NCBI GenBank assembly: GCA_021647705.1
Contig: JAKIUF010000004.1
Coordinates: 74,878 to 138,877 of the forward strand
Source of the DNA: Gammaproteobacteria bacterium
GTDB taxonomy: Bacteria > Pseudomonadota > Gammaproteobacteria > SZUA-152
Reading direction: 5' to 3'
DNA length: 64,000 nucleotides
Shown here: positions 38,490-58,539 of the stretch, piece after piece
How positions within the stretch are numbered: the stretch's first letter is position 1
Layout of the letters: the number at the start of each line of letters is the position of its first letter
Notes under the pieces: model-generated
What the model was told of the DNA's origin: nothing
Seen by the model: the letters and a program-made list of their open reading frames with translations, nothing else
Databases searched by the model: none
Translations under genes and position numbers: made by a program

Positions 38490-38991
38490 TTATGTTTTAT
38501 CACTGTAAAAACCCAACAAATCACCCTACAGAAACCTGTAAAACAATCAGCCCGAGGAGACTAAATGAAATGCCATGCTTAATTTTATAGCTATAAATAA
38601 TAATCACTAATCTTCGTGTTTTGGTAAAAATAAACACAACCATAGAATAAATAAAGCATGAAATAAAATCGAAACGACTACGAGCAGTATAATATTTGTT
38701 TCTTCCCAGCCCCGATGAAGCACTAAAATTAATTCAATATGCTATAGAAGATCTACAACAATATCTACTTATGAATTAGTCATTAAAAAGAATGGGTGAG
38801 TAAATTTATTTACACTTAAAAGTTCAGTGATAATAAAAACGCGGATAAATTTCTATAAAAATACATACAACTGATTTTTTTGCAAAACCATTCGCATTCT
38901 GCGATTACTCAAAGAAAGTTATCACTAACTCCGAGCATGAGATTAATATAATTCCTTGTTTTCATTGATCTAAAATAATTCTATTGCCTGC

Positions 38992-39007
38992 TGGCATGGT
39001 CTCTGCT
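38992..39007 (+). promoter_or_regulatory. candidate sigma54 promoter (-24 TGGCAT / -12 CTGCT)
   Basis: TGGCATGGTCTCTGCT has GG and GC spaced 12 nt apart, ~40 nt upstream of the STAS gene. Confidence 0.35.
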
Positions 39008-39047: not shown

Positions 39048-39404
39048 ATGGACTTTGAATGTATCGACACGACCGATGGTGATCTGATCGTCAAGCTATG
39101 TGGTGAAATGGATGCCCTGGGCTGCACAAAGATACGCACCGAGCTGGAACAGATAACTAATACTGAAAATAGCAATGTGTCTCTTGACTTAAGTCAGGTG
39201 AGTTTTCTCGATTCCTCTGGAATTGGTGCTATCGTTTTTCTGTACAAACGCCTTAAAGCCCAGGGAAGAACACTGATTATTGTCGGCGTGCAAGGTCAGC
39301 CTCAAGAGCTAATGAAACTACTGCGTATCGATAGCGCTATCCCGGTCAGCGTGATGCCTGTTAATGAATTATATGACGCCACCCCTTTACAGAAAACACA
39401 CTAA
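39048..39404 (+). CDS. STAS-domain anti-sigma-factor antagonist
   Basis: Start taken at MDFECIDTTDGDLIVKLCGEMD; VSFLDSSGIGAIV is the conserved phosphorylatable-Ser region. Confidence 0.8.
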   Translation: MDFECIDTTDGDLIVKLCGEMDALGCTKIRTELEQITNTENSNVSLDLSQVSFLDSSGIGAIVFLYKRLKAQGRTLIIVGVQGQPQELMKLLRIDSAIPVSVMPVNELYDATPLQKTH

Positions 39405-40219
39405 TGCACCAGTTAAGTATTAGCATTATTTGCTTTGCTTTGCTTGCTCTTGGTGGATGCGTGAATTGGCCTGTCGGGGGCCATGGTGGCATGGCTGAAC
39501 ATTATCAAGGAACACTAACCCCTGTTATGCCTGATCAACCACTAGGCCCGGAGCATGGCTTACGTTTTGATTTGGACCTGGCCCGCCAGCACCTGGACAT
39601 ACTCATACTGGAAGGTGCGGAATTGTGTTTTCCTGCAACGGTAATACAGGCCAGACAACGCCAAAATGATATCACTCGCGAGCTTTACGGTAATCTTGAT
39701 TTTGATGCGGCCAACAATCTGGTTGTGCAGCGTAAATTGTTGGCCCGTCTGGAGCGTCAACTTGACTATGTAAAACAACAAAGTGTTTGTATCCTGCCCA
39801 TAACTGAAGGCCAGGAAAAACCCGGAGATATTGGCAAGCATATCTATGATTTATTAAATGGTGATAATCAGTTTTCCGCTGACTCACCTGAGCTCAACCC
39901 CAAATATGTGGGCCAACTGGCTGAGGCTGCTCAACTGTTGCGCAACCAGCCGGGTTATCATTTGCGCATCATTGGTCATCCCGACACTTTGGAAAGACCG
40001 GAATATAATCGCAAACTCTCTTTGCAACGAGCCAAAAAGGTCGGACGTTATTTACAAGTTATGGGACTTCCCACTGAACGCATCCTGGTTGATGCAGTTG
40101 GTCCAGACCATCCATTATTGGCTACTGATGATAAACAGACACACACTCAACGGATAAACCGGCGTGTCAGTATTGAATTAATAGAAGCCCCGCCCTTGCC
40201 CCAAACAACCCGGAAATAA
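39404..40219 (+). CDS. OmpA-family lipoprotein
   Basis: Lipobox LALGGC; C-terminal OmpA-like domain (YHLRIIGHPD...NRKLSLQRAKKV...NRRVSI). Confidence 0.75.
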   Translation: MHQLSISIICFALLALGGCVNWPVGGHGGMAEHYQGTLTPVMPDQPLGPEHGLRFDLDLARQHLDILILEGAELCFPATVIQARQRQNDITRELYGNLDFDAANNLVVQRKLLARLERQLDYVKQQSVCILPITEGQEKPGDIGKHIYDLLNGDNQFSADSPELNPKYVGQLAEAAQLLRNQPGYHLRIIGHPDTLERPEYNRKLSLQRAKKVGRYLQVMGLPTERILVDAVGPDHPLLATDDKQTHTQRINRRVSIELIEAPPLPQTTRK

Positions 40220-40224
40220 ACACA

Positions 40225-42027
40225 ATGCCATCAAAAATAAACCTGGGGATAACCCTGTTATTACTTTTTTTTCCATTGCTGGTAAATGCTGAGGAGTACC
40301 GGGTACAGGTAAGCGATCTGATCCAGGTATCACTACCGGGTGAAAAAACCCTGGAAAAACCCATCAGCGTGAATCGACAAGGCAGTATCTTGTTACCCGA
40401 AATAGGCCTTATACCGGTAGCTGGTATAACCGAATCCGAAATGAAAATACGGGTCACTGATCACCTAAGCAATGTATTTCGTGACCTAACTCATTTACAA
40501 GTTTATGTCTATAAAAAACAATTGCTAATAAATGTATCAGGATATGTAAATCGACCGGGCGAGTTTACATTAGAAGCCAACGGATCAATACAAATGGCAC
40601 TTCATGCCGCCGATGGGCTACGCACCGGGGCACAACTGGACCGTATACAATTGATTCGCGACGGTACTACCCAAGTGTTTAATTATAAACAATACCTCGA
40701 TAGCGGAAATCATAGCTCACTACCTAAACTGAAGTCTCTGGATACCCTTTTCATACCCGCATCACCCATGACAGGGAATGTTGAAGTAGACTTTGACCCA
40801 TCCAAAATTGCAGATGCCGGTGATGCTGCTGATAACCGCAATGCGGTCAAAATATTTGGGGAAGTAAACCGGCCGGGTAGCTTTTCTCACCGGAAGTCGA
40901 TGAACATTGTCGATCTGCTTATGCGTGCTGGAGGTGTTACTCGTCATGCTGGGGTTGAACAAATCCGGGTAATCACTCAAGGCACACCTGTTTTGTTTGA
41001 TCTGACACAATACCTTGATACCGGTGACGAAAAATTTTTACCCATAATGATGCCGGGTGCTACCATTTTTGTCCCGCGACAAGAGGATGAAATAAAAACC
41101 GGTGAAAACCGGATTTATGTAATGGGTGCGGTCGCCCGACCCGGTGCATTCCAAGGTAAAGAGGGGGCCACATTAATGGATGTGCTGGCCAATGCAGGTG
41201 GGCCAACACGTTTCGCCGAATCAGAACAGATTCGCATTATAAAAACCAACGGTAATATCATCCCGTTTAATCTGGTTGGCTACATGGAAGGCACAACCTC
41301 CCTCCCGCTCCCCGAAATTACACCGGGTGATGCCATTTTCATCCCCGAAAAAAGAAATAGCAATGATAAAAAATCACAATGGATACACCAGGCCTCAGAA
41401 AAATCCATTTACATCTTTGGCCAGGTCGGCTCACCAGGTCGATATGTATTTACTGATGCTATGCATTTTCTGGATATTCTTTCCGCTGCTGATGGCCCTA
41501 CAGGTAATGCCGATATTCACAATATCCGCATTAGTCATCGTAATGCTAAACATGCCCGGGTCAGTAAATTAAATCTGGCATTGTATTTTGAAACCGGTGA
41601 TGAATATCTATTACCTTCAGTAAAAACAGGGGATACTATTTATGTGCCAGAAAAAAACCGCATTTGGCTGGATCAAAGCAAAGAAACTACAATACGTGTA
41701 CTCGGTGCCGTTAATAAACCAGGACGCTATCGCTTCAACAACAGCATGACCCTGCTCGATCTACTTGCAGAAGCTGGCGGCCCAAGCTCAAATGCATATG
41801 TTAAAAAAATTACTGTGGTAAATCTCTCATGTTGCCGGGATCAGGCCCGCAGTTTCGATTTAGCAAAATTCAGCCGTACCGCATCCTTTGCAGACTTACC
41901 CGTATTGCGAGTCGGTGACACCGTATATGTACCCAGCAAAGATGAAAGCACTCTGGAAAAAATGCGCGCCGGCTTGAATGATATATTTCAGCTGACTGCA
42001 CTCTCTGCACTGCTAGGCTTTCTCTAA
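40225..42027 (+). CDS. periplasmic polysaccharide export protein (Wza/EpsA-like, five SLBB repeats)
   Basis: Sec signal; five repeats of a [VI]xGxVxxPGxF...L...L..AGG...A....I.[IL] unit. Confidence 0.8.
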   Translation: MPSKINLGITLLLLFFPLLVNAEEYRVQVSDLIQVSLPGEKTLEKPISVNRQGSILLPEIGLIPVAGITESEMKIRVTDHLSNVFRDLTHLQVYVYKKQLLINVSGYVNRPGEFTLEANGSIQMALHAADGLRTGAQLDRIQLIRDGTTQVFNYKQYLDSGNHSSLPKLKSLDTLFIPASPMTGNVEVDFDPSKIADAGDAADNRNAVKIFGEVNRPGSFSHRKSMNIVDLLMRAGGVTRHAGVEQIRVITQGTPVLFDLTQYLDTGDEKFLPIMMPGATIFVPRQEDEIKTGENRIYVMGAVARPGAFQGKEGATLMDVLANAGGPTRFAESEQIRIIKTNGNIIPFNLVGYMEGTTSLPLPEITPGDAIFIPEKRNSNDKKSQWIHQASEKSIYIFGQVGSPGRYVFTDAMHFLDILSAADGPTGNADIHNIRISHRNAKHARVSKLNLALYFETGDEYLLPSVKTGDTIYVPEKNRIWLDQSKETTIRVLGAVNKPGRYRFNNSMTLLDLLAEAGGPSSNAYVKKITVVNLSCCRDQARSFDLAKFSRTASFADLPVLRVGDTVYVPSKDESTLEKMRAGLNDIFQLTALSALLGFL

Positions 42028-42734
42028 TGCATATCCCATCACAACACATCGAAATCGAACGAATTTACTCCCAGGTTCTCGGCGAAGGAAAACGCTCGAT
42101 AGCCATCAGTTCGGCAAACTCCGGTGAAGGTGTAAGTTCCCTTGCCCAGGCATTGGTACAACGTAATCTTCTGGCCGGTCATTCCACACTGCTGGTTGAC
42201 CTTAATTTACATCATCCTTCTCTCAGCAGCCTGCTCAAACTGGACGAATCGGAACAGGAGGCGGACCTGCTTGATAAACCACAACTGGTTACCGTACAAC
42301 AATCCATTGCATTAACCGGAGTCACTCCTCCAACCCATCGCAGTCTAGTGATGAAACTGCGCAAACCTGGCGTGCTCGAACAATATATCGCAGAGTGGCA
42401 ACAGACATATGATGCTGTAATTTTCGACACGTCACCCATTAATCGCACTAATGCCAACAATATTCCGCCAGAACGGGTTGCTGCTGCCTGTGATGGCAGT
42501 TTGCTGGTTGTGTTGGCAGGCAGTACGACCGAAGCAATGGTTTCCACCGCAGTGAATAAACTAAATGCCGCAGGCGCACAATTATTGGCTTGCATATACA
42601 ATGATCGTGATAACTCTTCCCTCAAAAGTGAATTACTCCGCGAACTTCATCGCCTGGAACCACGTTTCAGTAATATTTCTCATCGTCTCAAAAATTGGGT
42701 GCAACAGAATCAACTACTTTCTATGGAAACCTGA
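42027..42734 (+). CDS. BY-kinase-like P-loop ATPase with degenerate Walker A and A', no TM domain
   Basis: Aligns to the Wzc/CapB kinase domain, but Walker A reads SANSGEGVSS (Lys replaced by Val), A' reads LLVDLNLH (second Asp to Asn), Walker B VIFDTSP; no Tyr-rich tail. Confidence 0.6.
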   Translation: MHIPSQHIEIERIYSQVLGEGKRSIAISSANSGEGVSSLAQALVQRNLLAGHSTLLVDLNLHHPSLSSLLKLDESEQEADLLDKPQLVTVQQSIALTGVTPPTHRSLVMKLRKPGVLEQYIAEWQQTYDAVIFDTSPINRTNANNIPPERVAAACDGSLLVVLAGSTTEAMVSTAVNKLNAAGAQLLACIYNDRDNSSLKSELLRELHRLEPRFSNISHRLKNWVQQNQLLSMET

Positions 42735-42778: not shown

Positions 42779-44320
42779 ATGGATCGCCTACTATTTGAAA
42801 CTCAAAAACCAGTTACGCTGGAAGCAGTCCGTGAATTACGCCACCTGCTTGAGCCGGTTGTACAGGCCACTGTACCTGACCTTTCCATTCAACATCGTAT
42901 TTTGCTCTGCCTTTCTGAAGCAGTGACAAATCTCGTTTTACATGCCGCTCCCAAAGCAAACCTAGTCACTATGTGTTTTGGGCTCAATAGCTATGGATGG
43001 TGGCTGGAACTCCTGGACGATGGTGCATCATGGGATCCATCCCAACATAAACCAATCCATACCCAAAATCAGTTTGAATTGAGTGAACATGGGCGAGGTA
43101 CTTCTCTGCTACACACACAATGCGAACGAATGAAATATTATTCTGGTGATACTGAAAAGCCCAATCAATTACGAATGATCTGGGCAACACCGAAACAGCA
43201 CCTTCGTCCAACTATCTTGATAGTAGAAGACGATGCGTCTTTACGCCGAGTCTATGCCGCTTATCTTACTGAAGATTTCGAGCTACGCATGGCATCCAAT
43301 GGTCATGAAGCACTACAACAATTAAATACCAATAAAATTGATTTGGTTTTATCAGATATTAACATGCCACAGATGAGCGGATTTTCCTTACGGAAAAACC
43401 TGAAACAAGCATCGGGCACAAATATAATGCCCTTTATATTTTTAACTGCTTTTAATGATGCTCACATGCAAAAACAGGCAGCAAGCTTGGGTATTGATGA
43501 TTATTTGGTAAAGCCCGTTGATAAAACACAATTGGTTCACACGATTAACCGTGTGTTAGGACGTTCACAACAAATATATCGACACCTGACAGACCGAATA
43601 GATAAAAATATTACATCATCACTGGCTCCGAAATTACCGGATAAATCACACGGCTGGCGTCTTTGTTTTGCCAACCGTCATACAGGCATTGGTGGGGGAG
43701 ATTTACTCCTACACCGAAGCAGTGAAGAACAATTGGTACTTGTGTTAATTGATATCATGGGCCATGACGACTGTGCTAAGTTTTTTGCTTACGCTTATGG
43801 AGGATATCTTCGCGGATTAATGCACAGCAGTGCAACCGACATATCTCCTTCACAGTTATTGGAAAAACTATCAGAAAGTGCGCTACAGGATGAATTGTTG
43901 TCACAAGTGACATTAACCAGCTGCGTGGTAACTCTTTCACCAGGAGGGAAAATAACACTGGCCAGTGCAGGCCACCCACCGCCACTTATAATCAGTAAAA
44001 ACGGCACTGAAGCAATACCCATTGGCGGCATACTACCTGGCCTTTTGCCCGCCACAACGTATCAAACAAAATCCATACACCTTGCAAATGGGGAGCGTGT
44101 AGCCCTTTATACTGATGGTCTGTTCGAATCAGCTGAAGACAGTGATACCCGAAAAAAACTGGAATCCCGCATAACCACTGCGTTAACAGATACTCTCAAC
44201 AACCCCATTGAACAATCGATACAGACAGCTATGGACGTATTTGATGAACTTGCAGGAACCCCCCCCAAAGATGACACATTATTATTATTAATGGAGAAGA
44301 TAAAACCTTGCCCAATATAA
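42779..44320 (+). CDS. anti-sigma kinase (HATPase_c_2) - receiver - PP2C/SpoIIE phosphatase fusion
   Basis: EAVTNLVLHA...WWLELLDDGASWDP resembles RsbW/SpoIIAB; REC residues PTILIVEDD...LVLSDINMP...VKP; PP2C residues GGDLL...DIMGHD...YTDGLFE. Confidence 0.75.
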   Translation: MDRLLFETQKPVTLEAVRELRHLLEPVVQATVPDLSIQHRILLCLSEAVTNLVLHAAPKANLVTMCFGLNSYGWWLELLDDGASWDPSQHKPIHTQNQFELSEHGRGTSLLHTQCERMKYYSGDTEKPNQLRMIWATPKQHLRPTILIVEDDASLRRVYAAYLTEDFELRMASNGHEALQQLNTNKIDLVLSDINMPQMSGFSLRKNLKQASGTNIMPFIFLTAFNDAHMQKQAASLGIDDYLVKPVDKTQLVHTINRVLGRSQQIYRHLTDRIDKNITSSLAPKLPDKSHGWRLCFANRHTGIGGGDLLLHRSSEEQLVLVLIDIMGHDDCAKFFAYAYGGYLRGLMHSSATDISPSQLLEKLSESALQDELLSQVTLTSCVVTLSPGGKITLASAGHPPPLIISKNGTEAIPIGGILPGLLPATTYQTKSIHLANGERVALYTDGLFESAEDSDTRKKLESRITTALTDTLNNPIEQSIQTAMDVFDELAGTPPKDDTLLLLMEKIKPCPI

Positions 44321-44419: not shown

Positions 44420-44480
44420 TGAATCTCTGCATTCCTTGCGTCTTCGCACCTTTGCTTTGCTTTGCATTTTCATTATTCAG
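44420..44480. repeat. fragment of the MITE core
   Basis: gaatctctgcattccttgcgtcttcgcacctttgc...ttttcattattcag matches 29060-29125. Confidence 0.5.
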
Positions 44481-46791
44481 ATTTCACAAGTACAGCACCC
44501 TCATACCCGGTTAGACTAATCGTATTAGTGGCGGCTGTGAGTGTTCCATCATAATTTACACGACGGTAATAGCCGGGCAATACAAGTTCATGTGTAACGG
44601 ACATGAATTCTGGGTCACCACCAAAGAAATCAGTATGATACAAAACAAGGCCATTAGTGTAATCACGAGCAATAATCATTTGTTGCGGAAAATTAACACC
44701 ACCAATGGATTTTTTATCGTCTGATTGCCAAGCGTAGTAAATGTTCGACGGAGTCACTGGCACAGAACCCACCTGGTCAAACGTGGCTATACCTGGGTGA
44801 GCTAATACTAACTGAGTGCTATCACCTATCACCGCATAGTCATTATCTGTTGTTTTTGCTGTATAACGCAAAGGCTGAACAGTTTGATCAGGCCACTCTT
44901 GAACCTTTTTTGCAGGACTTCCGATATCGACAGATAACATGAGAGATGGTTGGTAAGCAATATTCTTAGGGATTCCTGGTTGATAAAAATTCCCTTCTTC
45001 AGTATTTCCAGAACCATAGTTATAACTATTATTCCAACTGGTATAAAAAGTTTTCCCAGGAATATTAACTAGATAATACATGGCCAGTCCCGTTGAAATT
45101 CTCGACTCCCAAGCAGTCTTTGTATTCAACATTGGAATAGAACCTGTCCACCCGGCATGAGCAATAATAGTTGTTGTTTTATTGCTTTGTGCCAGAGCAA
45201 AAATATCCCACATTTTTGCTATACCAAAATAACCATCAAGCCCCTGTCCAGGGCGAATATAATCTTCACGAAGAAACGTATCAAATACATCAACATATTT
45301 CATTTTGTTATTTCGGAGTGAAAAGATATTTTCCGCTGATGTGTTTGCTGCCACCCAAGAACTCCCTGACACGGACTTTATTTCCCGGATAGTGTCAAGA
45401 AAAGCATCCTGATACTTTTCTTTAAATACCGGATCATCAACCATAAGTCCATGTTCTATCGTTTTACCACCAACTCCGGCAACATTTACCCCCTCAAGTT
45501 TGAAGACATCATCGTTATATGCACCTGCCCGAGAATTTTTAATCCATTCCTGGTTTATGACATTTGCTATAGCTGCCCTGTAGGATGGGTTAAGAAAATC
45601 AGGCCTTTGAAAATTTGAGGTCTTACCCCACATATTACCAAGTGGTGTTACTCTTGATTCATAACGAAACCGTGCGGAAGCTGTCGTATTCACACGACCT
45701 TTAAATTCTGCGGCATCAATATACCCGTCACCATTTTTATCATTTTCCGAATCCCACCCACGAATCAGGCGCTTCTGGTTGAGTTTATTAATATATGGCA
45801 TAAAGTCTTTTATCATAATATCCTGAACAACCGGTTGATCATTAATATCTTCATCAACACGGCATATTTTTACAATATAAAACTTTTTGCCCTCCTTAAT
45901 ATACTTATTCCCAAAAAATTGCCCTGTTTTATTATTTGGGTCATATGTCGCCGCTTTCACCCAGTCACTAGCAGGCTGCCAACTTATGACACCCGAAATT
46001 TTCAACCCGTTAGTACCATCCATCATACCTGAATCACTGGTATTCCATTGATTCACTACACCATTATCGGCATCAATTCCGGAAGGATATTTCACAACCA
46101 ATCGCCCTGTTGTCGCTGTCGATTTCAGCATAAATTCCACTTGGTCAAACTTCTCTGGCATATAAATAAAAACACACCCCCCCTTTTCTGATCCGTTGAA
46201 AGGCTCAATTTCATAAGGGGGAAATTTCCAGACAAGAAACCCCGAGTGATTTTCCTCCGCTGTCCAGCCAGCAATCCATGGGCGTCGGTTTAAGGGTGTA
46301 TATATTGAATGATCTGGATATTGACCCTGAACAATAGTGTCTTCTGCGAAATGAAGAAAGTAACTTTCATAATCCTCACTAACACGTTCAGCATATTCAC
46401 GCAAATCAAACCCGACTGAGGTCGGAGAAAAATCTATTTTTTGAACATATATATAACCAATGTTAATTATATTATCAGCTGCTGACTTATCATAAGTTGA
46501 GCCAAATACAGCATCAGCATGATTCAACTCCCAGTCAATCAGTTGATCTTTTGTTGAAATGGGATACCCCATGGGGTCATAACTGTCAGCGTGATAACCA
46601 GGAATAATCCATGCTGTTAAAGTGGATGGATACACTTCTGTACGAAAGTTGGAATCAGTTACTGGTGCCGTGGCATCAATAGGGGTTTCTTCGCTTGCAC
46701 CCCCTCCACAGGAACTCAACAACGAAACGAAAATTATCATCAATAATAATCTATGAATAAAACGAGGAAATATAACCGGGTCTCTTTGCAT
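44473..46791 (-). CDS. large secreted lipoprotein, possibly a glycoside-hydrolase-like enzyme
   Basis: Lipobox LLSSCGGG; 772 aa; NGDGYIDAAEF is a Ca-binding-like loop; no confident family assignment. Confidence 0.45.
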   Translation of the reverse strand: MQRDPVIFPRFIHRLLLMIIFVSLLSSCGGGASEETPIDATAPVTDSNFRTEVYPSTLTAWIIPGYHADSYDPMGYPISTKDQLIDWELNHADAVFGSTYDKSAADNIINIGYIYVQKIDFSPTSVGFDLREYAERVSEDYESYFLHFAEDTIVQGQYPDHSIYTPLNRRPWIAGWTAEENHSGFLVWKFPPYEIEPFNGSEKGGCVFIYMPEKFDQVEFMLKSTATTGRLVVKYPSGIDADNGVVNQWNTSDSGMMDGTNGLKISGVISWQPASDWVKAATYDPNNKTGQFFGNKYIKEGKKFYIVKICRVDEDINDQPVVQDIMIKDFMPYINKLNQKRLIRGWDSENDKNGDGYIDAAEFKGRVNTTASARFRYESRVTPLGNMWGKTSNFQRPDFLNPSYRAAIANVINQEWIKNSRAGAYNDDVFKLEGVNVAGVGGKTIEHGLMVDDPVFKEKYQDAFLDTIREIKSVSGSSWVAANTSAENIFSLRNNKMKYVDVFDTFLREDYIRPGQGLDGYFGIAKMWDIFALAQSNKTTTIIAHAGWTGSIPMLNTKTAWESRISTGLAMYYLVNIPGKTFYTSWNNSYNYGSGNTEEGNFYQPGIPKNIAYQPSLMLSVDIGSPAKKVQEWPDQTVQPLRYTAKTTDNDYAVIGDSTQLVLAHPGIATFDQVGSVPVTPSNIYYAWQSDDKKSIGGVNFPQQMIIARDYTNGLVLYHTDFFGGDPEFMSVTHELVLPGYYRRVNYDGTLTAATNTISLTGYEGAVLVKSE

Positions 46792-47788
46792 CGCGATTGC
46801 TCCATTTTTTATTTATTAATGCGGCAACAAATTTTCTGCGGAACTTTTTCCAGCATTAACCATAATAATTTCAGGAAAGTCTTATTTCTTGATACCGCGA
46901 CGGTCTAAAATTACGATAAGATTAAATGATGCATCACCACTATTTGATGAAAAACAGTATAACGAGTTCAGCATTACAATGATATTGTACAAAAAAACAT
47001 TAAAGGCACACATTATGTGCTTTTATCTATTGAAGCTAATGAATGAACAATACTGAGAATAATTTTTGTATTCTTATTACTTAATATTGACAACCAAACG
47101 CAGATAAAACCCTGCCGTTCTTTTGCAAAACGCAAAGCAAAATAAAAAATAACTCGCACTAAAATCTCAATTTGATAAAAATATAACAACTAAGCTTTAA
47201 AAAATCTGTAAATCACTAGCCATACAAAGTATATTACAAGAAATGATTCATTGGCACGATAGTTGCTAATTTTACCTTGGGTGGGTTCCAGCCATATATA
47301 GATGCTATTAAAGAACCCCTTGGCGTTCATCATCACTAATAAAAATACTCATCATACTCAAGCATGCGTTAATTTTTTCATGCTTGGTTAAGGGTAGACG
47401 AAAAATGTAAGGACCTCCACGGAAGAAAAAAATCCTTGTATAAGCCGATTCCACCACCTTCGGTTCAGAAACTTACCTGTAATAATTCCCCTATCAGGCA
47501 TTCAGGCTTAGTCTGTAATTTTCCTAACTCACCTACTTTTGGTGCTCGTTATAATTTCCTGTTATTTTTAAGGAAAGAAAAACAGACAAGACGATAAAGT
47601 TCTAAATAAATATACAGGGAAATATTTTATTTCAAATTTTTTCATTAAAAAAATAGACGCCAAAAGCAAATGCTTTAGGCAAAAACTGGCTGAACAAAAT
47701 AATCGCAAGGATGCGGAAGGTAGGACGACTCAATAGATAAAACAAAATGGGGAAATAATTACATGCATATTTTAAAGGCAGGTATAAA

Positions 47789-50140
47789 TTGAACCTTTGC
47801 AAACACGGACAAACCCTATTGATCTATATTTCCAGATCAACCCACATACGACGGTGGCCCCTCTGGTTACAACTGGCACTGGCAATGACGATTGTTTTTT
47901 TTCTAGTCAATTTAATTGCTGCATCATTAGTCCGCTATGTGGTCAGTAATTTTGAATTCAAACAGGCGGAAGAACAAAGCCACAATTCTTTTGCGCTTTT
48001 TTCTGTCGCCATCATTGATGCTGTTATCACGGAAGATATACCCTTGATAAACACTGTTGTGGCGCGCTCTTTGGAGCGTATCCCCAACATCACGGCTCTC
48101 TCCATTGAAAGTGAGAAAGGTAAATTATTTGCCAAGCATTCACGAGAAGACACCATAATCAGCAACAATATACGTGACTACCACTACGCTATCGAGCTTG
48201 AAGGAAAGCGATTGGGCACTATTAATATCAGCTGGAATATGGCTCCGATCCAGAAAAAAATAAATCGTCATATAACCAAATTTCAATTATTTATTGCTAC
48301 TATTTTTTCTCTTTTGACCGGCCTGACAATCATACTCATACATTACCTTACCGTTCGCCCGATACATAATGCAACTCACTACCTAACTGCATTGTCAGAG
48401 AATAAACAATCTTTTCCGCTAAAAAATAGGTTCCTTACCAATCGCGAACTAGAGCTCCTCAAAATATCAGCGGACAATTTTGTCCGCATCATGCAACAAC
48501 GTGAGCACGATCTACTACAAACATGCAAAAAATTACAAATTTCCCGTGACGAAACCCTCAATGCCAACCGGGAAAAATCAGATTTTCTGGCTACGGTGAG
48601 CCATGAAATCCGCATTCCGATGAATGCTGTGCTAGGCGTTCTCAGCTTGCTTAAAAACACCTCTCTGGATAATAAACAGCTACAGTTGGTACGCACTGGC
48701 TGTGATTCTGGTGAACTGCTATTGACCATTATCAATGATATTCTCGATTTTTCCAAAATGGAAGCTGACAAATTACAATTAAAGCACACCAGCTTTAATT
48801 TACATCGACTGCTCACCAATAGCGTCGAATTGCTAAAACCACAGGCAGACCAAAAAATGCTGGCCCTCATTCTTTTTTTAGAGGCCGATCTTCCCTGTTA
48901 CGCCAAGGGAGACCCAGATCGCCTGTGCCAAATTCTAATCAACCTGATCAATAATGCCATTAAGTTTACTTCCGTCGGCAGAATCAGCATCAGAGCCTCA
49001 GCAACCTATCTTGGCAATGAAAGCTTTACCTTTCGCTGCTCTGTGCAGGACACAGGCATAGGTATTGCCAAAGACTTCCAGGCATCACTGTTTGAAAAAT
49101 TTACGATGGGAAATCAAAGCCACTCCAGAAACCATGAGGGTACCGGCCTGGGTCTGGCCATCTGTAAACACTTAGTTACTCTTATGCAGGGCAATATCAA
49201 CTTTGACAGCACACCTGGAAATGGCAGCACTTTTACATTTACCATTACACTGGGAACCGCAAACGAGCAGGAAAGCACGGATAGAACGACATTAAATAAA
49301 ATCCAAGAATTACCGACAACTAATACCCGAATTTTACTGGCTGAAGACAATCCGGCCAATCAAATGGTCATCAAAAATATTCTGGAACATGCCGGCCTGC
49401 AAGTGGATATTGCCACCAACGGCCGCGAGGCAATAGAAGCTGTACGCACCCTGCCCTATGATATTGTGCTAATGGATGTTTCTATGCCGGATATGGATGG
49501 TATCAGCGCTACACGAGAAATCCGCCAACTCCCCGGAGAAACCGGAAAACTGCCTATTGTAGCACTCACTGCTCATTCTCTGTCAGGCGATAGAGAACGC
49601 TTTATTCAAGCCGGTATGGATGATTATTTAACCAAACCCATAGACCATATTGCCACCTTGCATTGCATCGCCCGTTGGACAAAAAGCATTAACACCCAAG
49701 AATTGAAAAATGACCGTACAATAAAGCACACCAACCCATCTTCTGCCAATGCCGGGGATGGATATGTTGCCCCATTAGTCGATACAGATATACTACAACA
49801 GTTGGTATATGACACTTCACCAGAAATCATAACTGAATTGTTGACGCTGTATATTAATGATGCCCGTAAACGAATAAAGAAAATACAGGCTGCAATAACA
49901 ACGCCTGATTTCAACATTTTGGAATTTGAAAGCCATACCCTGAGTAGTAGTGCTATCACCCATGGCAACCTTAAACTCCATCACCTTGCGAAAAAAATTG
50001 AACAATTTTGTCAACGGGGTGATTATGAGAAAGTGCTCACATACGCCAGCTCGCTGTCAGCACTTGCGAATGAGTCCTTTATTTCATTAGAAAAATATCG
50101 GTCTACGATAAAGGTGGGACAGGAATCGCCCGAATCTTGA
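47789..50140 (+). CDS. hybrid sensor histidine kinase (two TM periplasmic sensor, HisKA, HATPase, REC, Hpt)
   Basis: H-box ATVSHEIRIPMN; G-boxes DTGIGI/GTGLGLAI; REC ILLAEDNPANQ...LMDVSMP; C-terminal Hpt ESHTLSSSA. Confidence 0.9.
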   Translation: MNLCKHGQTLLIYISRSTHIRRWPLWLQLALAMTIVFFLVNLIAASLVRYVVSNFEFKQAEEQSHNSFALFSVAIIDAVITEDIPLINTVVARSLERIPNITALSIESEKGKLFAKHSREDTIISNNIRDYHYAIELEGKRLGTINISWNMAPIQKKINRHITKFQLFIATIFSLLTGLTIILIHYLTVRPIHNATHYLTALSENKQSFPLKNRFLTNRELELLKISADNFVRIMQQREHDLLQTCKKLQISRDETLNANREKSDFLATVSHEIRIPMNAVLGVLSLLKNTSLDNKQLQLVRTGCDSGELLLTIINDILDFSKMEADKLQLKHTSFNLHRLLTNSVELLKPQADQKMLALILFLEADLPCYAKGDPDRLCQILINLINNAIKFTSVGRISIRASATYLGNESFTFRCSVQDTGIGIAKDFQASLFEKFTMGNQSHSRNHEGTGLGLAICKHLVTLMQGNINFDSTPGNGSTFTFTITLGTANEQESTDRTTLNKIQELPTTNTRILLAEDNPANQMVIKNILEHAGLQVDIATNGREAIEAVRTLPYDIVLMDVSMPDMDGISATREIRQLPGETGKLPIVALTAHSLSGDRERFIQAGMDDYLTKPIDHIATLHCIARWTKSINTQELKNDRTIKHTNPSSANAGDGYVAPLVDTDILQQLVYDTSPEIITELLTLYINDARKRIKKIQAAITTPDFNILEFESHTLSSSAITHGNLKLHHLAKKIEQFCQRGDYEKVLTYASSLSALANESFISLEKYRSTIKVGQESPES

Positions 50141-50741
50141 CGATTGTGCCGCTTGCCACCTTCGATATCCAAAAAATAAATAGAAACCTTGAGCTTATGT
50201 GCTTTCTTAAGTTTCTCGTTATCAAGCAAAAGGTTGTCGCCTTTGCCCAAAACATGGTTTTCACTGTGTTTTTCTGTACAAATAGAAACCCAAGAGACTT
50301 CTTGACAGGACTCATTACCCGATCTTGAAAAAATAATGATGGCTAAAGAATGCCCATGTTCCTGAATATTCCCTTGCGACACCAGCTTTTCATATTACCG
50401 ATAAAACTCACCATTACTTGCAAAATGCAAAGCAAATTGAAAATTTGTACCTTTTCAATATTTCGACCTATAAGGGAAACCGCTAAACCAATCAGTATTA
50501 TCCCGAAAAACACTAACAATGCTCCACCTGCTTCTGATCGTCCCCGCGCTGCATAAAAAGCAACCACCCATGCGTGTAAATTCCGTATTTTTCTGTGTTC
50601 CCGAACAAACCAAAGGAAAGCTGAGCATTTATTGTACACTTTCAATGCAGGCCAAATAATTATAGGAACCCATTGGCATGATCATTGCTGACATATTCAA
50701 AAGACCTGTTCCAGTTATTGGCATGTCACGAGGGAACCTCT

Positions 50742-51140
50742 ATGTTTTTTATCGCAAATAAGAAAAAAGTGCTCATTATCGATGATGACCCCAGTCTACA
50801 ACGACTACTGCATGCTCGCCTGGAAAGGCACGAGAATGTAAAGATCATAAAAGCAATGGATGGAAAAAACGGTCTTATACAGGCCAGCCTCCATAATCCT
50901 GATTTAATCATCCTGGACTGGATGTTACCGGACATCCAGGGGATTGAGGTTCTTGAACGCCTCAAATGCGAAAGAAAAACAAAAAACACCCCGGTATTAA
51001 TGCTCACTGGGTGCAATAAAACCGGTAACATCGAAGATGCTTTTTATCTTGGGGCTGATGCTTACCTCACCAAAACTGCTTCTTTACAGATATTAGGAAA
51101 GAAAGTCGATGAAATGCTGAGTTCATCCCGTTCGTATTAG
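50742..51140 (+). CDS. single-domain response regulator receiver (CheY-like)
   Basis: KKKVLIIDDDPS...LIILDWMLPD...LTGC...DAYLTKT. Confidence 0.8.
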   Translation: MFFIANKKKVLIIDDDPSLQRLLHARLERHENVKIIKAMDGKNGLIQASLHNPDLIILDWMLPDIQGIEVLERLKCERKTKNTPVLMLTGCNKTGNIEDAFYLGADAYLTKTASLQILGKKVDEMLSSSRSY

Positions 51141-51396: not shown

Positions 51397-54300
51397 ATGC
51401 CAGAGTCTCAAATGCTATGGTTGCCTCAGTACTTGCCGTTCAATAGAAAGATATCTTTCCAAAATAAAAGTCTGCGAGAAGCGTTTCTACAAAATGTATT
51501 ATTGACCCGGTTACTGGAGCCGTTTGAAAACATGCGCAATACATTAACTAATATATTCGCAACAAAGACAAGTAATACCAGTAGCCAAATTCCCACATCC
51601 CTGACTGTGGGGATTTTACTCGTCTGTGTGATGCCTTTTGTGCTCACACTTCTAGGTATGGATTTCGGGACTCGTGGTATACCCGTTGATCATTCATGGG
51701 CACTACAAGCGCCAGAATATGATGTGATTGATGCCCAGTTTCGCGCACTGTCCGGTGCCTTTACCCACACGCTACTGGAATGGAGTGCATTCTGTGTGGC
51801 AACCTTCGTGGTATTTCTGGCTTTCAGCCACTACAAAATCACCCATGATGTCACCACTCCTATTATTGGTGTCGCTTTTTTCATGGCAGGCTGCATGGAT
51901 GCTTTTCATACTTTGGCGGCAGACCGACTATTCGATGCAGTAGCAGACAACCACGACCTGATTCCTTTTACTTGGGCTATTTCCCGTTTGTTCAGCGCAC
52001 TCATTATGATCATTGGTGTGGGCATTGTGTTATTCCGCAACCCGGAAACCAATAAAAAACCCGGTTTTGGTTTTGTTATCGGCATCAGTCTGCTTTTTGG
52101 AATAGCTGCCTATATCATTATTCATATTTCCGCCACATCCACCCAACTGCCACAAACAACTTACCCTGATGCTATTTTAACACGACCATACGATGCCTTA
52201 CCGTTGGTACTGTTTGCTTTTGCCGGGTTAATAATATTTCCCCGCCTGTATAAACGTCATCCAAGTTTGTTCGCTTATACGCTCATTATCAGTGCAGTAC
52301 CGGAAGTTATCACCCAGCTGCATATGACTTTTGGCTCCACAGCACTGTTCGATAATCATTTTAATATCGCCCATTTTCTGAAAATCGTTGCCTATACCGT
52401 TCCTCTCATTGGCCTGACCCTGGATTATATCCGTGCTCAGCAAACATTGCAGCTGGAAATCGCAGAACGCATGGAAGCAGAAAGTGCATTAAAAATCATC
52501 GAAACCCGTCAGCGTACTATTCTGGAAACAGTGGCTGATGCCATCATCACTATCAATAAAAAAGGCATCATTCAAACATTCAATCCCGCTGCTGAGAAAA
52601 TTTTCGGTTACCCTGCTGCCGAAGCGTTAGGGAATAATATATCCATGCTTCTGCCGGAAAAAGAACAAAAGGAACACGACTGCTATGTCATAAATTCTCA
52701 ACTACATTCTCCCCGCATTTTCAATCAAGACCGTGAGCTACAAGGGCGACGTAAAGATGGTTCTCTATTACCGCTGGAACTCAATATCGCACCAATGAGA
52801 CTAGAGAAAGAACAAGGATTTGTTGGCGTCCTGCGTGATATCACTGAACGTAAAAAAAATGAAAGTGCGTTACAAAGTGCGATAGAAAAAGCCGAGGCGG
52901 CCAGTCAGGCCAAATCTCTTTTTTTAGCGACCATGAGCCATGAAATTCGTACTCCGATGAATGCTGTATTAGGCATTCTTGGCCTGCTCAAGGAAAGCAC
53001 TCTGAATAACCAACAGCGGCATTTAGTACACACGGGTCGTGAATCTGGTGAACTGCTGCTGACAATTATCAATGACATCCTCGACTTTTCCAAAATGGAG
53101 GCTGACAAGCTGCAATTGGAGCACACTTGTTTTGATCTTCATCGCTTACTGACTAACAGTATTGAGCTGCTCAAACTACAGGCTGAACGTAAAGGGCTTA
53201 TCCTTGAACTGAACCTCGATTCAGACTTGCCACGGTATGCCAAAGGTGACCCGGACCGGCTACGCCAAATTTTGCTCAAACTAGGTAATAATGCGACTAA
53301 ATTTACCCGCGATGGCCGGATTAACATTAGCGCCTCCGCTGCTCGCATTAATGATACAGCGTTCACCCTCCACTGTACCGTACAAGACACGGGCATTGGT
53401 ATTTCCCAAGAACACCAAGCTACCTTGTTCGAAGAATTCACAATGGCAGACCAGGGACACACCAGAACCCACGAAGGAACGGGACTGGGACTCGCCATTT
53501 GTAAACGCCTGGTCTCACTCATGCAGGGCAGTATTAACATGAGTAGTGAAGCTGGAAAAGGCAGCCTCTTCTTCTTTGATGTGAAGCTCGAATTGGCAAC
53601 AGAACAGGAATGTGGCAACGCACAAGCAATAATGAAACCACAGCAACTGCCTCCAACCAATACACGTATTCTGTTAGCAGAAGATAACCCCGCTAATCAG
53701 ATGGTGATCAAAAATATCCTGGAATCTTCTAACTTGCGAGTCGATATTGTTGCCAACGGTCGTGAAGCCATTGAGGCCGTACGCCATCTACCTTACGACA
53801 TCGTACTAATGGATATTTCCATGCCGGAAATGGATGGCATAACAGCGACGCGGGAAATTCGCCAACTCCCCGGAAAAATGAGCAAACTTCCCATTATTGC
53901 TCTTACCGCTCATTCACTCTCAGGGGATAAAGAACGCTTTCTTGCGGCAGGCATGGATGAGTACCTGAGCAAACCCATAGACCGCGCCGCCATGTTACAC
54001 TGCATCGCCCACTGTATCGGTAAAACCATAGAACAAAAAACCATCGAACAAAAACCTCAACCAGACTCAGTGATACCACAACCCAACACACCTCCTGCCA
54101 ATACCACAGATAATCATATGGATCCGTTTGTAGATGAAAGTGTACTGCAACAACTGACGCACGACACTGCCCCCGAAATCGTTCCTGGACTACTGATGTT
54201 TTACATCGAGGATGCCCGCAAGCGGGTAGAACAAATCCAGAATGCCATCATAAAAAAAGATATTGAAGCCCTGGAATTTGAAAGCCATACATTAGGCAGT

Positions 54301-54495
54301 AGCGCTGCGGCTCACAGCAACGCAAAACTGTGCGCTCTGGCACGAAAAATAGAATGTCTTTGCCAGGAAGGTGCCTATCAACAAGCACTATCGGAAGCTG
54401 CGTCGTTATCATCCATTGCCAATGAGTCTTTCCGTCAGCTGGCAGAGCGTGCCAACAAGAAATTTGAAATAACCAATAAAGAAGAAAAAACATGA
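51397..54495 (+). CDS. hybrid sensor histidine kinase (about 8-TM N-terminal domain, PAS, HisKA, HATPase, REC, Hpt)
   Basis: Multi-TM N-terminal ~340 aa; PAS LETVADAIITINKKGIIQTFN; H-box ATMSHEIRTPMN; REC plus Hpt ESHTLGSSA; C-terminal 600 aa about 70% identical to the 47789 kinase. Confidence 0.9.
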   Translation: MPESQMLWLPQYLPFNRKISFQNKSLREAFLQNVLLTRLLEPFENMRNTLTNIFATKTSNTSSQIPTSLTVGILLVCVMPFVLTLLGMDFGTRGIPVDHSWALQAPEYDVIDAQFRALSGAFTHTLLEWSAFCVATFVVFLAFSHYKITHDVTTPIIGVAFFMAGCMDAFHTLAADRLFDAVADNHDLIPFTWAISRLFSALIMIIGVGIVLFRNPETNKKPGFGFVIGISLLFGIAAYIIIHISATSTQLPQTTYPDAILTRPYDALPLVLFAFAGLIIFPRLYKRHPSLFAYTLIISAVPEVITQLHMTFGSTALFDNHFNIAHFLKIVAYTVPLIGLTLDYIRAQQTLQLEIAERMEAESALKIIETRQRTILETVADAIITINKKGIIQTFNPAAEKIFGYPAAEALGNNISMLLPEKEQKEHDCYVINSQLHSPRIFNQDRELQGRRKDGSLLPLELNIAPMRLEKEQGFVGVLRDITERKKNESALQSAIEKAEAASQAKSLFLATMSHEIRTPMNAVLGILGLLKESTLNNQQRHLVHTGRESGELLLTIINDILDFSKMEADKLQLEHTCFDLHRLLTNSIELLKLQAERKGLILELNLDSDLPRYAKGDPDRLRQILLKLGNNATKFTRDGRINISASAARINDTAFTLHCTVQDTGIGISQEHQATLFEEFTMADQGHTRTHEGTGLGLAICKRLVSLMQGSINMSSEAGKGSLFFFDVKLELATEQECGNAQAIMKPQQLPPTNTRILLAEDNPANQMVIKNILESSNLRVDIVANGREAIEAVRHLPYDIVLMDISMPEMDGITATREIRQLPGKMSKLPIIALTAHSLSGDKERFLAAGMDEYLSKPIDRAAMLHCIAHCIGKTIEQKTIEQKPQPDSVIPQPNTPPANTTDNHMDPFVDESVLQQLTHDTAPEIVPGLLMFYIEDARKRVEQIQNAIIKKDIEALEFESHTLGSSAAAHSNAKLCALARKIECLCQEGAYQQALSEAASLSSIANESFRQLAERANKKFEITNKEEKT

Positions 54496-55889
54496 GCGAT
54501 AAACCAAATGTACTTTTAGTGGAGGATGCAAAACCCCAGGCGGTACTCTTCCAGCAATATCTGAAAAATGAAATGATTAACCTGACCCATGTTGCTACAG
54601 GAGAGGATGCCAAGACAATCATTGCCACAAACCCACCTGATTTAATCCTGCTCGATCTTAAATTGCCGGATATGGAGGGACAGGAAATCCTGCGCTGGAT
54701 AAAACAGGAAAAGTTTCCCACATCTGTCATTATCATCACCGGCCACAGCTCAGTGGATGTTGCTGTAGATGTTATGCGCATCGGCGCAGAAGACTTTTTG
54801 GAAAAACCGGTCACTGCAAGCAGACTACAAATAACTGTCAGAAATCTGCTGGAACGGTCCCGCCTGCAACATTTAATTGATGACTACCAGAACACATTTG
54901 ATCGTCAACGCTACCACGGTTTTATCGGTTACAGTCTACCCATGCAAGCGGTCTACCGTATTATCGATGCCGCTGCTCCCAGTAAAGCTACCGTATTTAT
55001 TACGGGTGAAAGTGGTACTGGCAAAGAAGTTTGTGCCGAAGCAATCCACGCACAAGGCACCCGTGCCGAACACTCCTTTATCGCATTGAATTGTGCGGCC
55101 ATTCCCCACGACCTGATGGAGAGTGAAATTTTTGGGCACATTAAAGGTGCCTTTACTGGAGCTTCTGCCGAACGTAAGGGTGCCGCTTTACTTGCTAATG
55201 GCGGTACTTTATTTCTGGATGAAATTGGCGAAATGGATCTGGATCTGCAAACCAAATTATTGCGATTCATCCAAACCGGCAGCTTTCAAAAAGTTGGTGG
55301 CAGTAATCTGGAAAAAGTTGATGTGCGCTTTATTTGTGCCACCAACCGCGATCCACTGGAAGATATCGCTGCCGGACGCTTTAGAGAAGACCTCTACTAC
55401 CGGTTACATGTCGTTCCTTTGCATTTGCCACCTTTACGCGAACGTGGTGACGACATCATAGAAATTGCCCAGCACTTCCTGATTGCCTATGCGCAGGAAG
55501 AGGGCAAAGGGTTCACAACATTCACCCCTGAGGTCGAGGTTATTCTTCGTCGTTACAATTGGCCAGGAAATGTGCGCCAGCTACAAAATGTCATCCGTAA
55601 CATTGTCGTTCTGCACGATGAAAAATCCGTCACTCTGGCTCACCTTCCAGCACCACTCAACACGTCATTAAACAATCTGGAAATTTCTCATCTAACGCAA
55701 CCATTACAACAAACGGAGGCGACAGACAATCTCAAACATGCGCCAATAAAACCATTAGCCAGCGTCGAGCGTGATGTTATTGAACGAGCGATTAAAATCT
55801 GTGATGGCAATATCCCAAAAGCTGCCGCTCTGCTTGAAGTGAGCCCTTCAACAATATATCGGAAAAAGCAGGGTTGGGAGTCAACCTGA
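54492..55889 (+). CDS. sigma54-dependent NtrC-family response regulator (REC, AAA+, HTH)
   Basis: GESGTGKE Walker A; GAFTGA sigma54-contact motif; C-terminal Fis-type HTH; 4-nt overlap with the upstream kinase. Confidence 0.9.
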   Translation: MSDKPNVLLVEDAKPQAVLFQQYLKNEMINLTHVATGEDAKTIIATNPPDLILLDLKLPDMEGQEILRWIKQEKFPTSVIIITGHSSVDVAVDVMRIGAEDFLEKPVTASRLQITVRNLLERSRLQHLIDDYQNTFDRQRYHGFIGYSLPMQAVYRIIDAAAPSKATVFITGESGTGKEVCAEAIHAQGTRAEHSFIALNCAAIPHDLMESEIFGHIKGAFTGASAERKGAALLANGGTLFLDEIGEMDLDLQTKLLRFIQTGSFQKVGGSNLEKVDVRFICATNRDPLEDIAAGRFREDLYYRLHVVPLHLPPLRERGDDIIEIAQHFLIAYAQEEGKGFTTFTPEVEVILRRYNWPGNVRQLQNVIRNIVVLHDEKSVTLAHLPAPLNTSLNNLEISHLTQPLQQTEATDNLKHAPIKPLASVERDVIERAIKICDGNIPKAAALLEVSPSTIYRKKQGWEST

Positions 55890-56834
55890 TTTACGGCATT
55901 GCATAACATCGAAACTTATAGCTTCGGAGCGATCAATAAACATCTGCAATCCCTGGGCTAAGGTATACTTAGCCGTTACACCTAAAGCCTGTTGCGCATA
56001 ACCAGGATCGCCAACTGATACACGTATATCACCTTTGCGTGTTGATTGGTATACAACCGGTACTTGCAGTGCGGTAATCGACATCACTGTTTTTGCAAGC
56101 TGATTGATCGTAACAGCCTCACCAGTACAAACATTAAATACAGTGGGAGTGCGGTTTATATTTTTCATGGAGACACATAAAAACCGCACAACATCTCCAA
56201 CATAAATAAAGTCACGAGTCTGTTCTCCATCACCAAAAATAGTCAACGCCTGATGATTCATGATCCGATCCACAAAAATTGAAATAACGCCCGAGTAGAA
56301 TGAGGCAGGGTTTTGACGTGGTCCATAGACATTAAAGAAGCGCATACCCGTGGTGGGAACACCATGTACTAATGATGCAACTTGCGCATGCAATTCCGAA
56401 CCAAGTTTATCGGCCCCGTAGGCTACCAGAGGGCTTACCGCCGAACTTTCCTTCAAGGGAATATCGGCATTATCACCATAAACTGCGGCGGACGAGGCAT
56501 ACACCACTGGTATTCTTTTTTCTTTGGCCGCATCAAATACGTTAATTGTGCCAGTCAAGTTTACCTGATGAGTGCGAACCCAGTCTTCATTGGATTGTTG
56601 TACTGAGGCAATAGCCGCAAGGTGGAAACACCCATCCATATCTCGCATACAGTGACGAACCGTTTCACTGTCAGCAACATCTCCCGTAATAACTTCACAT
56701 TGAGGTGGAACATTCTCCATCTTACCGGTGGAAAAATCATCAAGGATACGTACCTGATGACCATCCTTCAGCAGACTTTCAGCCAAGTGTGAACCAATAA
56801 AACCACAACCACCGGTAACCAGATAATTTGCCAT
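55881..56834 (-). CDS. NAD-dependent nucleotide-sugar epimerase/dehydratase
   Basis: Start taken at MANYLVTGGCGFIGSHL (Rossmann GxxGxxG); YASSAAVYG catalytic region. Confidence 0.8.
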   Translation of the reverse strand: MANYLVTGGCGFIGSHLAESLLKDGHQVRILDDFSTGKMENVPPQCEVITGDVADSETVRHCMRDMDGCFHLAAIASVQQSNEDWVRTHQVNLTGTINVFDAAKEKRIPVVYASSAAVYGDNADIPLKESSAVSPLVAYGADKLGSELHAQVASLVHGVPTTGMRFFNVYGPRQNPASFYSGVISIFVDRIMNHQALTIFGDGEQTRDFIYVGDVVRFLCVSMKNINRTPTVFNVCTGEAVTINQLAKTVMSITALQVPVVYQSTRKGDIRVSVGDPGYAQQALGVTAKYTLAQGLQMFIDRSEAISFDVMQCRKSG

Positions 56835-56867
56835 TTTATACACTCTCTTTAATTTAGGTATTTGATA

Positions 56868-56950
56868 TTAATTAATCACTGAAAACATACCGGGATACGG
56901 TATTTTCAGTAACTAAAGTGCGAAAGAAAGATTTAGCCCTTAATTCACAC
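56868..56950. repeat. degenerate MITE fragment (terminal-repeat-like end plus CTGAAAATACCG hairpin)
   Basis: TTTAGCCCTTAATTCACA at 56931-56950; cactgaaaacataccgg..cggtattttcag resembles 32620-32640. Confidence 0.45.
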
Positions 56951-57227
56951 CTTACCTGCACGATAGGCAAGCGGCATGCCAAGCTAAAATAAGCAGGATT
57001 CAGGTTGTTTTTCAGAATACTGGAGAATGGTAGGCGACACTCTGCATTGCACTTTGCGGCAGTAGGTGTCGATTCTTGCAATCTGCACCCTTTAATAATG
57101 CGCATTAATATCACAATATCGTTAATTTAAGCGAAGTTTTCTGCATGTTACAAATAATCGGTAAGCTTGCTGTCCCCAACAGCGTTGATATTAATATTTT
57201 ACCCTGATCGATTTACGCAAATAAAAA

Positions 57228-57243
57228 CGGCATCAATATTGCA
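57228..57243 (+). promoter_or_regulatory. candidate sigma54 promoter (CGGCAT-N5-TTGCA)
   Basis: GG and GC spaced 12 nt apart; -12 element TTGCA exact; 30 nt upstream of the GT4 gene start. Confidence 0.45.
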
Positions 57244-57272
57244 GCTATATCTATAAAAAAATAAGGATTGAC

Positions 57273-58289: not shown

Positions 58290-58387
58290 TTGCAATCTGC
58301 GAAGCAAACCAGAAAAACATACTGATAAAAATAATATTTCTTATTATTTTTCGATGAAAATCAATTAACAAACCTCATTACAGCGCT

Positions 58388-58403
58388 TGGCTCGTCTCTT
58401 GCA
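58388..58403 (+). promoter_or_regulatory. candidate sigma54 promoter (TGGCTC-N5-TTGCA)
   Basis: 11 of 12 consensus positions with correct spacing; ~137 nt upstream of the next glycosyltransferase. Confidence 0.45.
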
Positions 58404-58539
58404 AACCCTTTGATTACAGAGCATTTAGCCATTCAGGGTATCCGTATGCAATTACATCATATCAACCACCAGAGTATCGTCCTTACCTTTTTTCATCATT
58501 GGGCCGCACACGAAACAAATACCCCAATAAGGTCACATT

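Follow-up and report, generated by a model that had tools for sequence, protein, structure and literature searches.

A probable SypE-type bifunctional response regulator in a syp-type exopolysaccharide locus of an uncultured marine gammaproteobacterium

The syp-type locus and its sypE-like gene

The window analyzed here, a 64,000-nt stretch of DNA, comes from an uncultured marine gammaproteobacterium. On its forward strand it carries a gene whose product joins a serine kinase domain, a receiver and a PP2C phosphatase domain in one polypeptide, within a locus of the syp type. The genes and elements of this locus are given below in window coordinates, with the basis of each assignment in parentheses.

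38992..39007, forward strand: sigma-54-type -24/-12 promoter-like element, TGGCATGGTCTCTGCT, followed 40 nt later by the STAS start codon (read from the sequence)
39048..39404, forward strand: sypA-like gene for a single-domain STAS protein, 118 aa from its ATG (Pfam STAS, E 2e-19; TIGR00377 above cut-off)
39404..40219, forward strand: sypB-like gene for an OmpA-family protein (Pfam OmpA; synteny)
40225..42027, forward strand: sypC-like gene for a polysaccharide export protein with Poly_export and SLBB repeats (Pfam; synteny)
42027..42734, forward strand: sypD-like gene for a 235-aa relative of polysaccharide tyrosine-autokinase ATPase domains (sub-threshold NCBIfam matches; synteny)
42779..44320, forward strand: sypE-like gene, 513 aa, kinase, receiver and PP2C phosphatase (ORF, Pfam, AF2 model, homologues of the same length)
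42812..43183, forward strand: RsbW/SpoIIAB-like GHKL serine kinase domain, residues 12-135 (Pfam HATPase_c_2, RsbW profile match, fold matches)
43214..43546, forward strand: receiver domain, residues 146-256 (Pfam Response_reg, E 8e-27)
43724..44296, forward strand: SpoIIE/PP2C serine phosphatase domain, residues 316-506 (Pfam SpoIIE, E 1.3e-28)
47789..50140, forward strand: hybrid sensor kinase, HisKA-HATPase_c-REC-HPt (Pfam)
50685-51140: stand-alone receiver (Pfam)
51397..54495, forward strand: second hybrid sensor kinase, MASE3-PAS-HisKA-HATPase_c-REC-HPt (Pfam)
54492..55889, forward strand: sypG-like gene for a sigma-54-dependent response regulator with REC, AAA+ and HTH_8 (Pfam; most related loci also have it on the downstream side of their sypE-like gene)
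55881-62533: putative epimerase, glycosyltransferases, flippase and O-antigen-ligase-like protein (ORF size and sequence reading alone)
62540-63487, forward strand: putative REC-GGDEF protein of the diguanylate cyclase type, last in the cluster (judged from its translation)

The sypE-like reading frame is intact and encodes 513 residues from the ATG at 42779. A longer frame, opening at TTG 42695, would give 541 aa and overlap the end of the upstream gene, whose stop codon lies at 42732-42734. Homologues are ~503-530 aa long and their alignment begins at residue 1, the methionine encoded by this ATG; because of these lengths and alignments and the overlap of the TTG frame with the preceding gene, we rejected the TTG and take ATG 42779 as the better start. 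An earlier note on this DNA gave the same start, which stands, but its residue ranges for the three domains (~60-165, ~170-290 and ~300-541) follow the numbering of the 541-aa frame.

Synteny was assessed by tblastn of the window proteins against 48 related loci, 37 of which extend 4 kb or more upstream. In 34 of those 37 the STAS, OmpA-like, SypC-like, SypD-like and SypE-like genes occur in the same order, and a kinase and a sigma-54 activator are usually found downstream of this five-gene block in related loci. Among these 34 are loci from the Vibrionaceae genera Enterovibrio and Parasalinivibrio; the ORFs of the Enterovibrio norvegicus locus measure 108, 269, 704, 235, 511, 1023 and 478 aa. 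In the window, the STAS gene lies 3.4 kb upstream of the sypE-like gene, and the predicted phosphorylation site of its product is Ser56 in the motif FLDSSG. The SypD-like protein matches TIGR01007 (54 bits against a cut-off of 108) and TIGR03029 below threshold, with weak ParA and AAA_31 matches. Its Walker A region, SSANSGEGVSS, is without lysine, which suggests a degenerate ATPase.

A 772-aa lipoprotein-like ORF on the reverse strand (44473-46791) is inserted after the sypE-like gene and ahead of the sensor kinases. Among the 48 related loci it is present only in those of the two closest MAGs; it matches no Pfam or NCBIfam family, and a weak EF-hand-like loop at residues 351-365 is its sole recognizable feature. 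The two hybrid kinases are 63% identical over the 524 aa of their transmitter-REC-HPt portions, and their sensor ends are unrelated. Relatives from Glaciecola and Sedimenticola also have genes similar to the REC-GGDEF ORF at 62540-63487 close to the locus. Base composition shifts along the window: the housekeeping stretch at 10000-32000 (which includes, for example, a putative aspartyl-tRNA synthetase at 12134-13930, read from sequence) has a GC content of 0.49-0.58, apart from a low-GC pocket at 18-20 kb, whereas the syp-like locus lies within 32000-64000 at 0.36-0.47. To judge by this step, the locus may have been acquired horizontally.

The promoter-like element ahead of the STAS gene has counterparts elsewhere. 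Of 32 related loci, 11 have the pattern TGGCAY-N5-CTGCW in an equivalent place, 52-77 nt ahead of their STAS genes, and further sigma-54-like sites in the window lie at 47252-47267 (a perfect consensus, ahead of the hybrid kinase gene at 47789-50140), 50674 and 58388. These sites fit the sigma-54 dependence known for syp. A 19-bp motif, TTGCAAAAYGCAAAGCAAA, is found in three copies (47123-47141, 50418-50436 and 58290-58308) against 0.21 expected, and a related sequence, TTGCAAAACCATTCGCA, lies at 38880-38896, upstream of the STAS gene. Each of these copies precedes a sigma-54-like site (47252, 50674, 58388 or 38992) by ~80-260 bp, and the motif may serve the SypG-like activator as an enhancer. 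An Rfam scan of the entire 64,000-nt window returned no matches.

Domain architecture and catalytic residues

Three Pfam domains, all above their gathering scores, place kinase, receiver and PP2C phosphatase in that order in a single polypeptide, as the earlier note had read from the sequence. For the N-terminal domain, the HATPase_c_2 match at residues 12-135 has E 8.8e-11 and 42.3 bits against a cut-off of 27.4, and covers the 127-position profile from 3 to 127. Modeled by AF2, residues 1-140 (pLDDT 87, pTM 0.81) have the topology beta-alpha-alpha-beta-beta-(disordered lid)-alpha-beta-beta. The top PDB matches of this model in Foldseek are SpoIIAB (1l0o and 1til; TM 0.74-0.75, E 2e-7), followed by RsbW, UsfX and SiaB, and the catalytic domains of histidine kinases score far lower. 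A profile built from 28 N-terminal domains matches Bacillus subtilis RsbW (6m36) with E 2e-8 over residues 7-124, and SpoIIAB with E ~0.01; a single-sequence phmmer search of the domain against the PDB returned a weak RsbW match alone (E 0.094). The GHKL-ATPase fold, on which the earlier note had staked its reading beforehand, is thus borne out by the Pfam match above cut-off, the RsbW profile match and the SpoIIAB and RsbW folds at the head of the list. The kinase motifs are an N-box with E47 and N51, D80-x-G82, and G105-R106-G107.

The receiver has an acidic pocket at D150/D151, a predicted phospho-acceptor at D193 (the Asp in LSDINMP) and K245; a long helix (residues 249-282 in the full-length AF2 model) joins it to the PP2C domain. 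The metal-binding motifs of the phosphatase are GGGD308, D325-IMGH-D330, T-D446-G and D498-D499, with the conserved GGGD motif (residues 305-308) lying just upstream of the Pfam SpoIIE span. In fold, the PP2C domain matches the phosphatase domain of Pseudomonas aeruginosa RssB, SpoIIE, SiaA and RsbX. The full-length model has a pLDDT of 88.1 and a pTM of 0.56, a value at which the relative placement of the domains is unreliable. Its best structural match for the receiver, linker helix and PP2C domain is P. aeruginosa RssB, a REC-PP2C protein (PDB 3f7a and 3eq2; E 6e-24). RssB, unlike the window protein, has no N-terminal kinase domain, and its role is different. An assignment to the two-domain RssB type was rejected, since the kinase domain of the window protein is confidently folded.

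Conservation was read from an alignment of 80 homologues with identity down to ~31%. E47, N51, D80 and G107 of the kinase domain never vary, and G105 and R106 hardly do; D151, D193 and K245 are invariant in the receiver, as are G305-G306-G307-D308, D325, G328-H329, D446-G447 and D498-D499 in the phosphatase. Because these invariant columns are the expected catalytic residues, the receiver and both enzymatic domains look functional. The resemblance to RssB also bears on a different possibility, namely that one catalytic domain is degenerate and solely regulatory, as in the E. coli RssB pseudo-phosphatase, and that the protein is monofunctional. RssB proteins are indeed the best full-length structural matches, and in Vibrio fischeri overexpressing sypG no role was seen for the phosphatase domain of SypE (PMC3610818). 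Set against this, the invariance of the PP2C aspartates and of the N-box and G-box residues of the kinase, maintained down to ~31% identity, argues for selection on both activities, and we consider loss of either one highly improbable.

The earlier note had described the domain order as unusual and rearranged, a description that is not supported: V. fischeri SypE has been described with just this kinase-REC-PP2C arrangement (PMC3610818, PMC10120452), which is also very common. When a profile was run against 1.84 billion cluster representatives (50% identity), the best 150 matches all had E 6e-118 or better, and ~140 of them match the full-length profile end to end in one stretch; these proteins are ~500-560 aa long, with a profile match that starts within the first 17 positions and ends at ~500-509. 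By this measure at least 140 protein clusters at 50% identity have the complete predicted three-domain layout. The combination PF13581-PF00072-PF07228 is likewise found in nearly all of the 189 distinct clusters (90% identity) listed by two homologue searches, and equally in nearly all of the best 120. Homologues come from Psychromonas, Moritella, Enterovibrio, Grimontia, Photobacterium, Vibrio, Aeromonas, Glaciecola, Motilimonas, Sedimenticola, Cycloclasticus and Endozoicomonadaceae, and the nearest relatives of the window protein are from MAGs, at 86-91% identity. Full-length three-domain homologues (~38% identity and 97% coverage in tblastn) are also carried on Plesiomonas shigelloides megaplasmids of 300-400 kb (NZ_CP062197.1 and NZ_CP027853.1).

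Other proteins use the same parts in different arrangements. In the Bacillus subtilis RsbW/RsbV/RsbU and SpoIIAB/SpoIIAA/SpoIIE systems, the kinase fold, STAS substrate and PP2C chemistry are alike, but these are separate proteins that include no receiver and whose output is sigma-factor release. Mycobacterium tuberculosis Rv1364c (PDB 3ke6) has a PP2C domain and an RsbW-like kinase fused, both parts of which match the window protein structurally; it differs in its PAS-PP2C-kinase-STAS order, in having no receiver and in carrying the substrate fused to the enzyme.

Correspondence with Vibrio fischeri SypE and SypA

In V. fischeri, unphosphorylated SypE phosphorylates the STAS protein SypA at Ser56, which blocks biofilm formation, and phosphotransfer through RscS/SypF makes SypE a phosphatase that reactivates SypA (PMC10120452, PMC4517449). 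The kinase function of SypE requires N52 (PMC3610818). Sequence and locus features of this type of regulator are present in the window: an N-box asparagine in the kinase, a receiver aspartate, intact PP2C aspartates, a STAS protein with Ser56 and a syp-type locus around them. The earlier note overlooked SypE, the STAS gene at 39048-39404 and the surrounding locus.

Comparison with the V. fischeri proteins was made through residues named in the literature and not through sequence alignment. Five of the six published N-terminal residues of SypE are matched, R19, R22, E48, N52 and R107 corresponding to R18, R21, E47, N51 and R106 of the window protein with a constant offset of one; the sixth, N40, a published contact residue, differs (H39). 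The STAS protein agrees with SypA at fifteen positions bearing the same numbers (D22, G25, D47, F53, D55, S56, S57, Y66, K67, R68, G83, Q84, E87, L91 and R93) and differs at six (D20 to E, R27 to T, Y64 to F, E71 to A, K72 to Q and D73 to G). R27 of SypA is needed for control by SypE, and in the window protein K28 is adjacent to the altered position. For the receiver and phosphatase domains, the residues mutated in V. fischeri SypE are D192, D443 and D495, which play no part in this comparison. The queries for homologues were the protein of the window, its Enterovibrio orthologue and a relative from Photobacterium whose residues match the published SypE numbering; V. fischeri SypE itself is absent from the matches listed and from those of a tblastn search of a plasmid collection.

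The two loci also resemble each other in arrangement. As in V. fischeri, the window gene is fifth in the order sypA-B-C-D-E, its partner STAS protein has Ser56, and the locus is of the sigma-54-dependent type, with an HPt hybrid kinase and a SypG-like activator. Past sypE, in contrast, the loci are not colinear: the window has the 772-aa gene on the opposite strand, two paralogous hybrid kinases and a stand-alone receiver before the activator. The coinciding residues give strong indirect evidence, short of an alignment, that both partners are orthologous to V. fischeri SypE and SypA. A convergent origin, in which the SypE domain order would have arisen independently by fusion and would serve a different STAS-dependent process, draws some support from the use of published residues in place of an alignment, and from the fast evolution of SypE, reported to be the least conserved syp product (bioRxiv 10.1101/471292). 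Yet the order of the genes is shared and the gene has the same place in it, the SypE and SypA residues named in the literature are found again at corresponding positions, and members of the family are found in the Vibrionaceae themselves (Enterovibrio, Grimontia, Photobacterium and Vibrio). Convergence is on these grounds very unlikely.

A predicted kinase/phosphatase toggle and its place in the family

We propose, with a probability of roughly 0.8, that the window protein is a SypE-type bifunctional response regulator that toggles the upstream STAS protein in a syp-type exopolysaccharide (biofilm) locus. With its receiver unphosphorylated, the RsbW-like kinase domain would phosphorylate Ser56 of the STAS protein, which is likely the substrate; this modification would inactivate the STAS protein and block polysaccharide and biofilm production post-transcriptionally. 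A hybrid sensor kinase of the locus would pass phosphate through its HPt domain to Asp193, and both hybrid kinases are candidate phosphodonors for this residue. The balance would then shift to the PP2C phosphatase, which would dephosphorylate and so reactivate the STAS protein. The same phosphorelay would probably activate the SypG-like sigma-54 activator and drive the promoters of the locus. What the analysis establishes is the three domains and their folds, the catalytic residues that do not vary, the partner gene, whose product has a serine that could be phosphorylated, and the synteny; how receiver state sets activity, which kinase donates phosphate and the post-transcriptional output on polysaccharide and biofilm are points that we infer from V. 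fischeri. The receiver-controlled toggle on a STAS protein that the earlier note had suggested is thereby supported, by analogy, as essentially the published SypE model.

The earlier note had compared the protein with HsbR, whose order it gave correctly: HsbR of P. aeruginosa and CrsR of Shewanella oneidensis are both REC-PP2C-kinase proteins (PMC6482189). Like the window protein, they hold the three domain types in one response regulator whose receiver state switches between phosphorylation and dephosphorylation of a STAS protein. The STAS site is also Ser56 in HsbA, the input is an HPt phosphorelay and the output is biofilm versus motility. They differ from the window protein in their domain order, in having an adjacent STAS gene and a separate HPt protein (HptB), in a kinase domain that also binds RpoS, and in not being encoded in a polysaccharide locus. 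An HsbR-type assignment was rejected on the order of the domains, and HsbR and CrsR are the wrong comparator for this protein.

A partner switch of the HsbR/CrsR kind could nonetheless operate with another domain order, the kinase domain acting mainly as an anti-sigma factor that sequesters, for example, RpoS, and the STAS protein being its upstream antagonist and not the effector. The best fold matches of the N-terminal domain are true anti-sigma factors (SpoIIAB, RsbW and UsfX), and HsbR and CrsR, which combine the same three domains, do bind RpoS (PMC6482189). However, the domain order in the window is not theirs, and no sigma-factor gene was found in the locus among the ORF translations or by Pfam. 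In V. fischeri, moreover, epistasis places SypA downstream of SypE (PMC10120452), and 34 loci show close linkage of the sypE-like gene with genes for polysaccharide export. We judge such a partner switch improbable, and favor the SypE-type toggle, with the STAS protein as effector.

Where the STAS protein acts may be sought in the locus itself. Its downstream target might be encoded inside the five-gene block, the SypD-like protein being one candidate, in which case the toggle would gate the export or polymerization machinery directly and without a sigma factor; we offer this as a speculative extension, with the odds against it. The block is kept across many gammaproteobacterial genera while the surrounding kinases and glycosyltransferases vary, a pattern compatible with a target inside the block.

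The sypE-like gene adds an uncharacterized member to a family that is already known and widespread, and its discovery value is small, as work on V. fischeri SypE set out both the architecture and the toggle over ten years ago. The SypE/SypA module is, at the same time, not specific to V. fischeri: it forms a large family in marine Gammaproteobacteria, in which the four genes upstream are nearly always the same, and this conserved linkage provides comparative material for finding the target of SypA.
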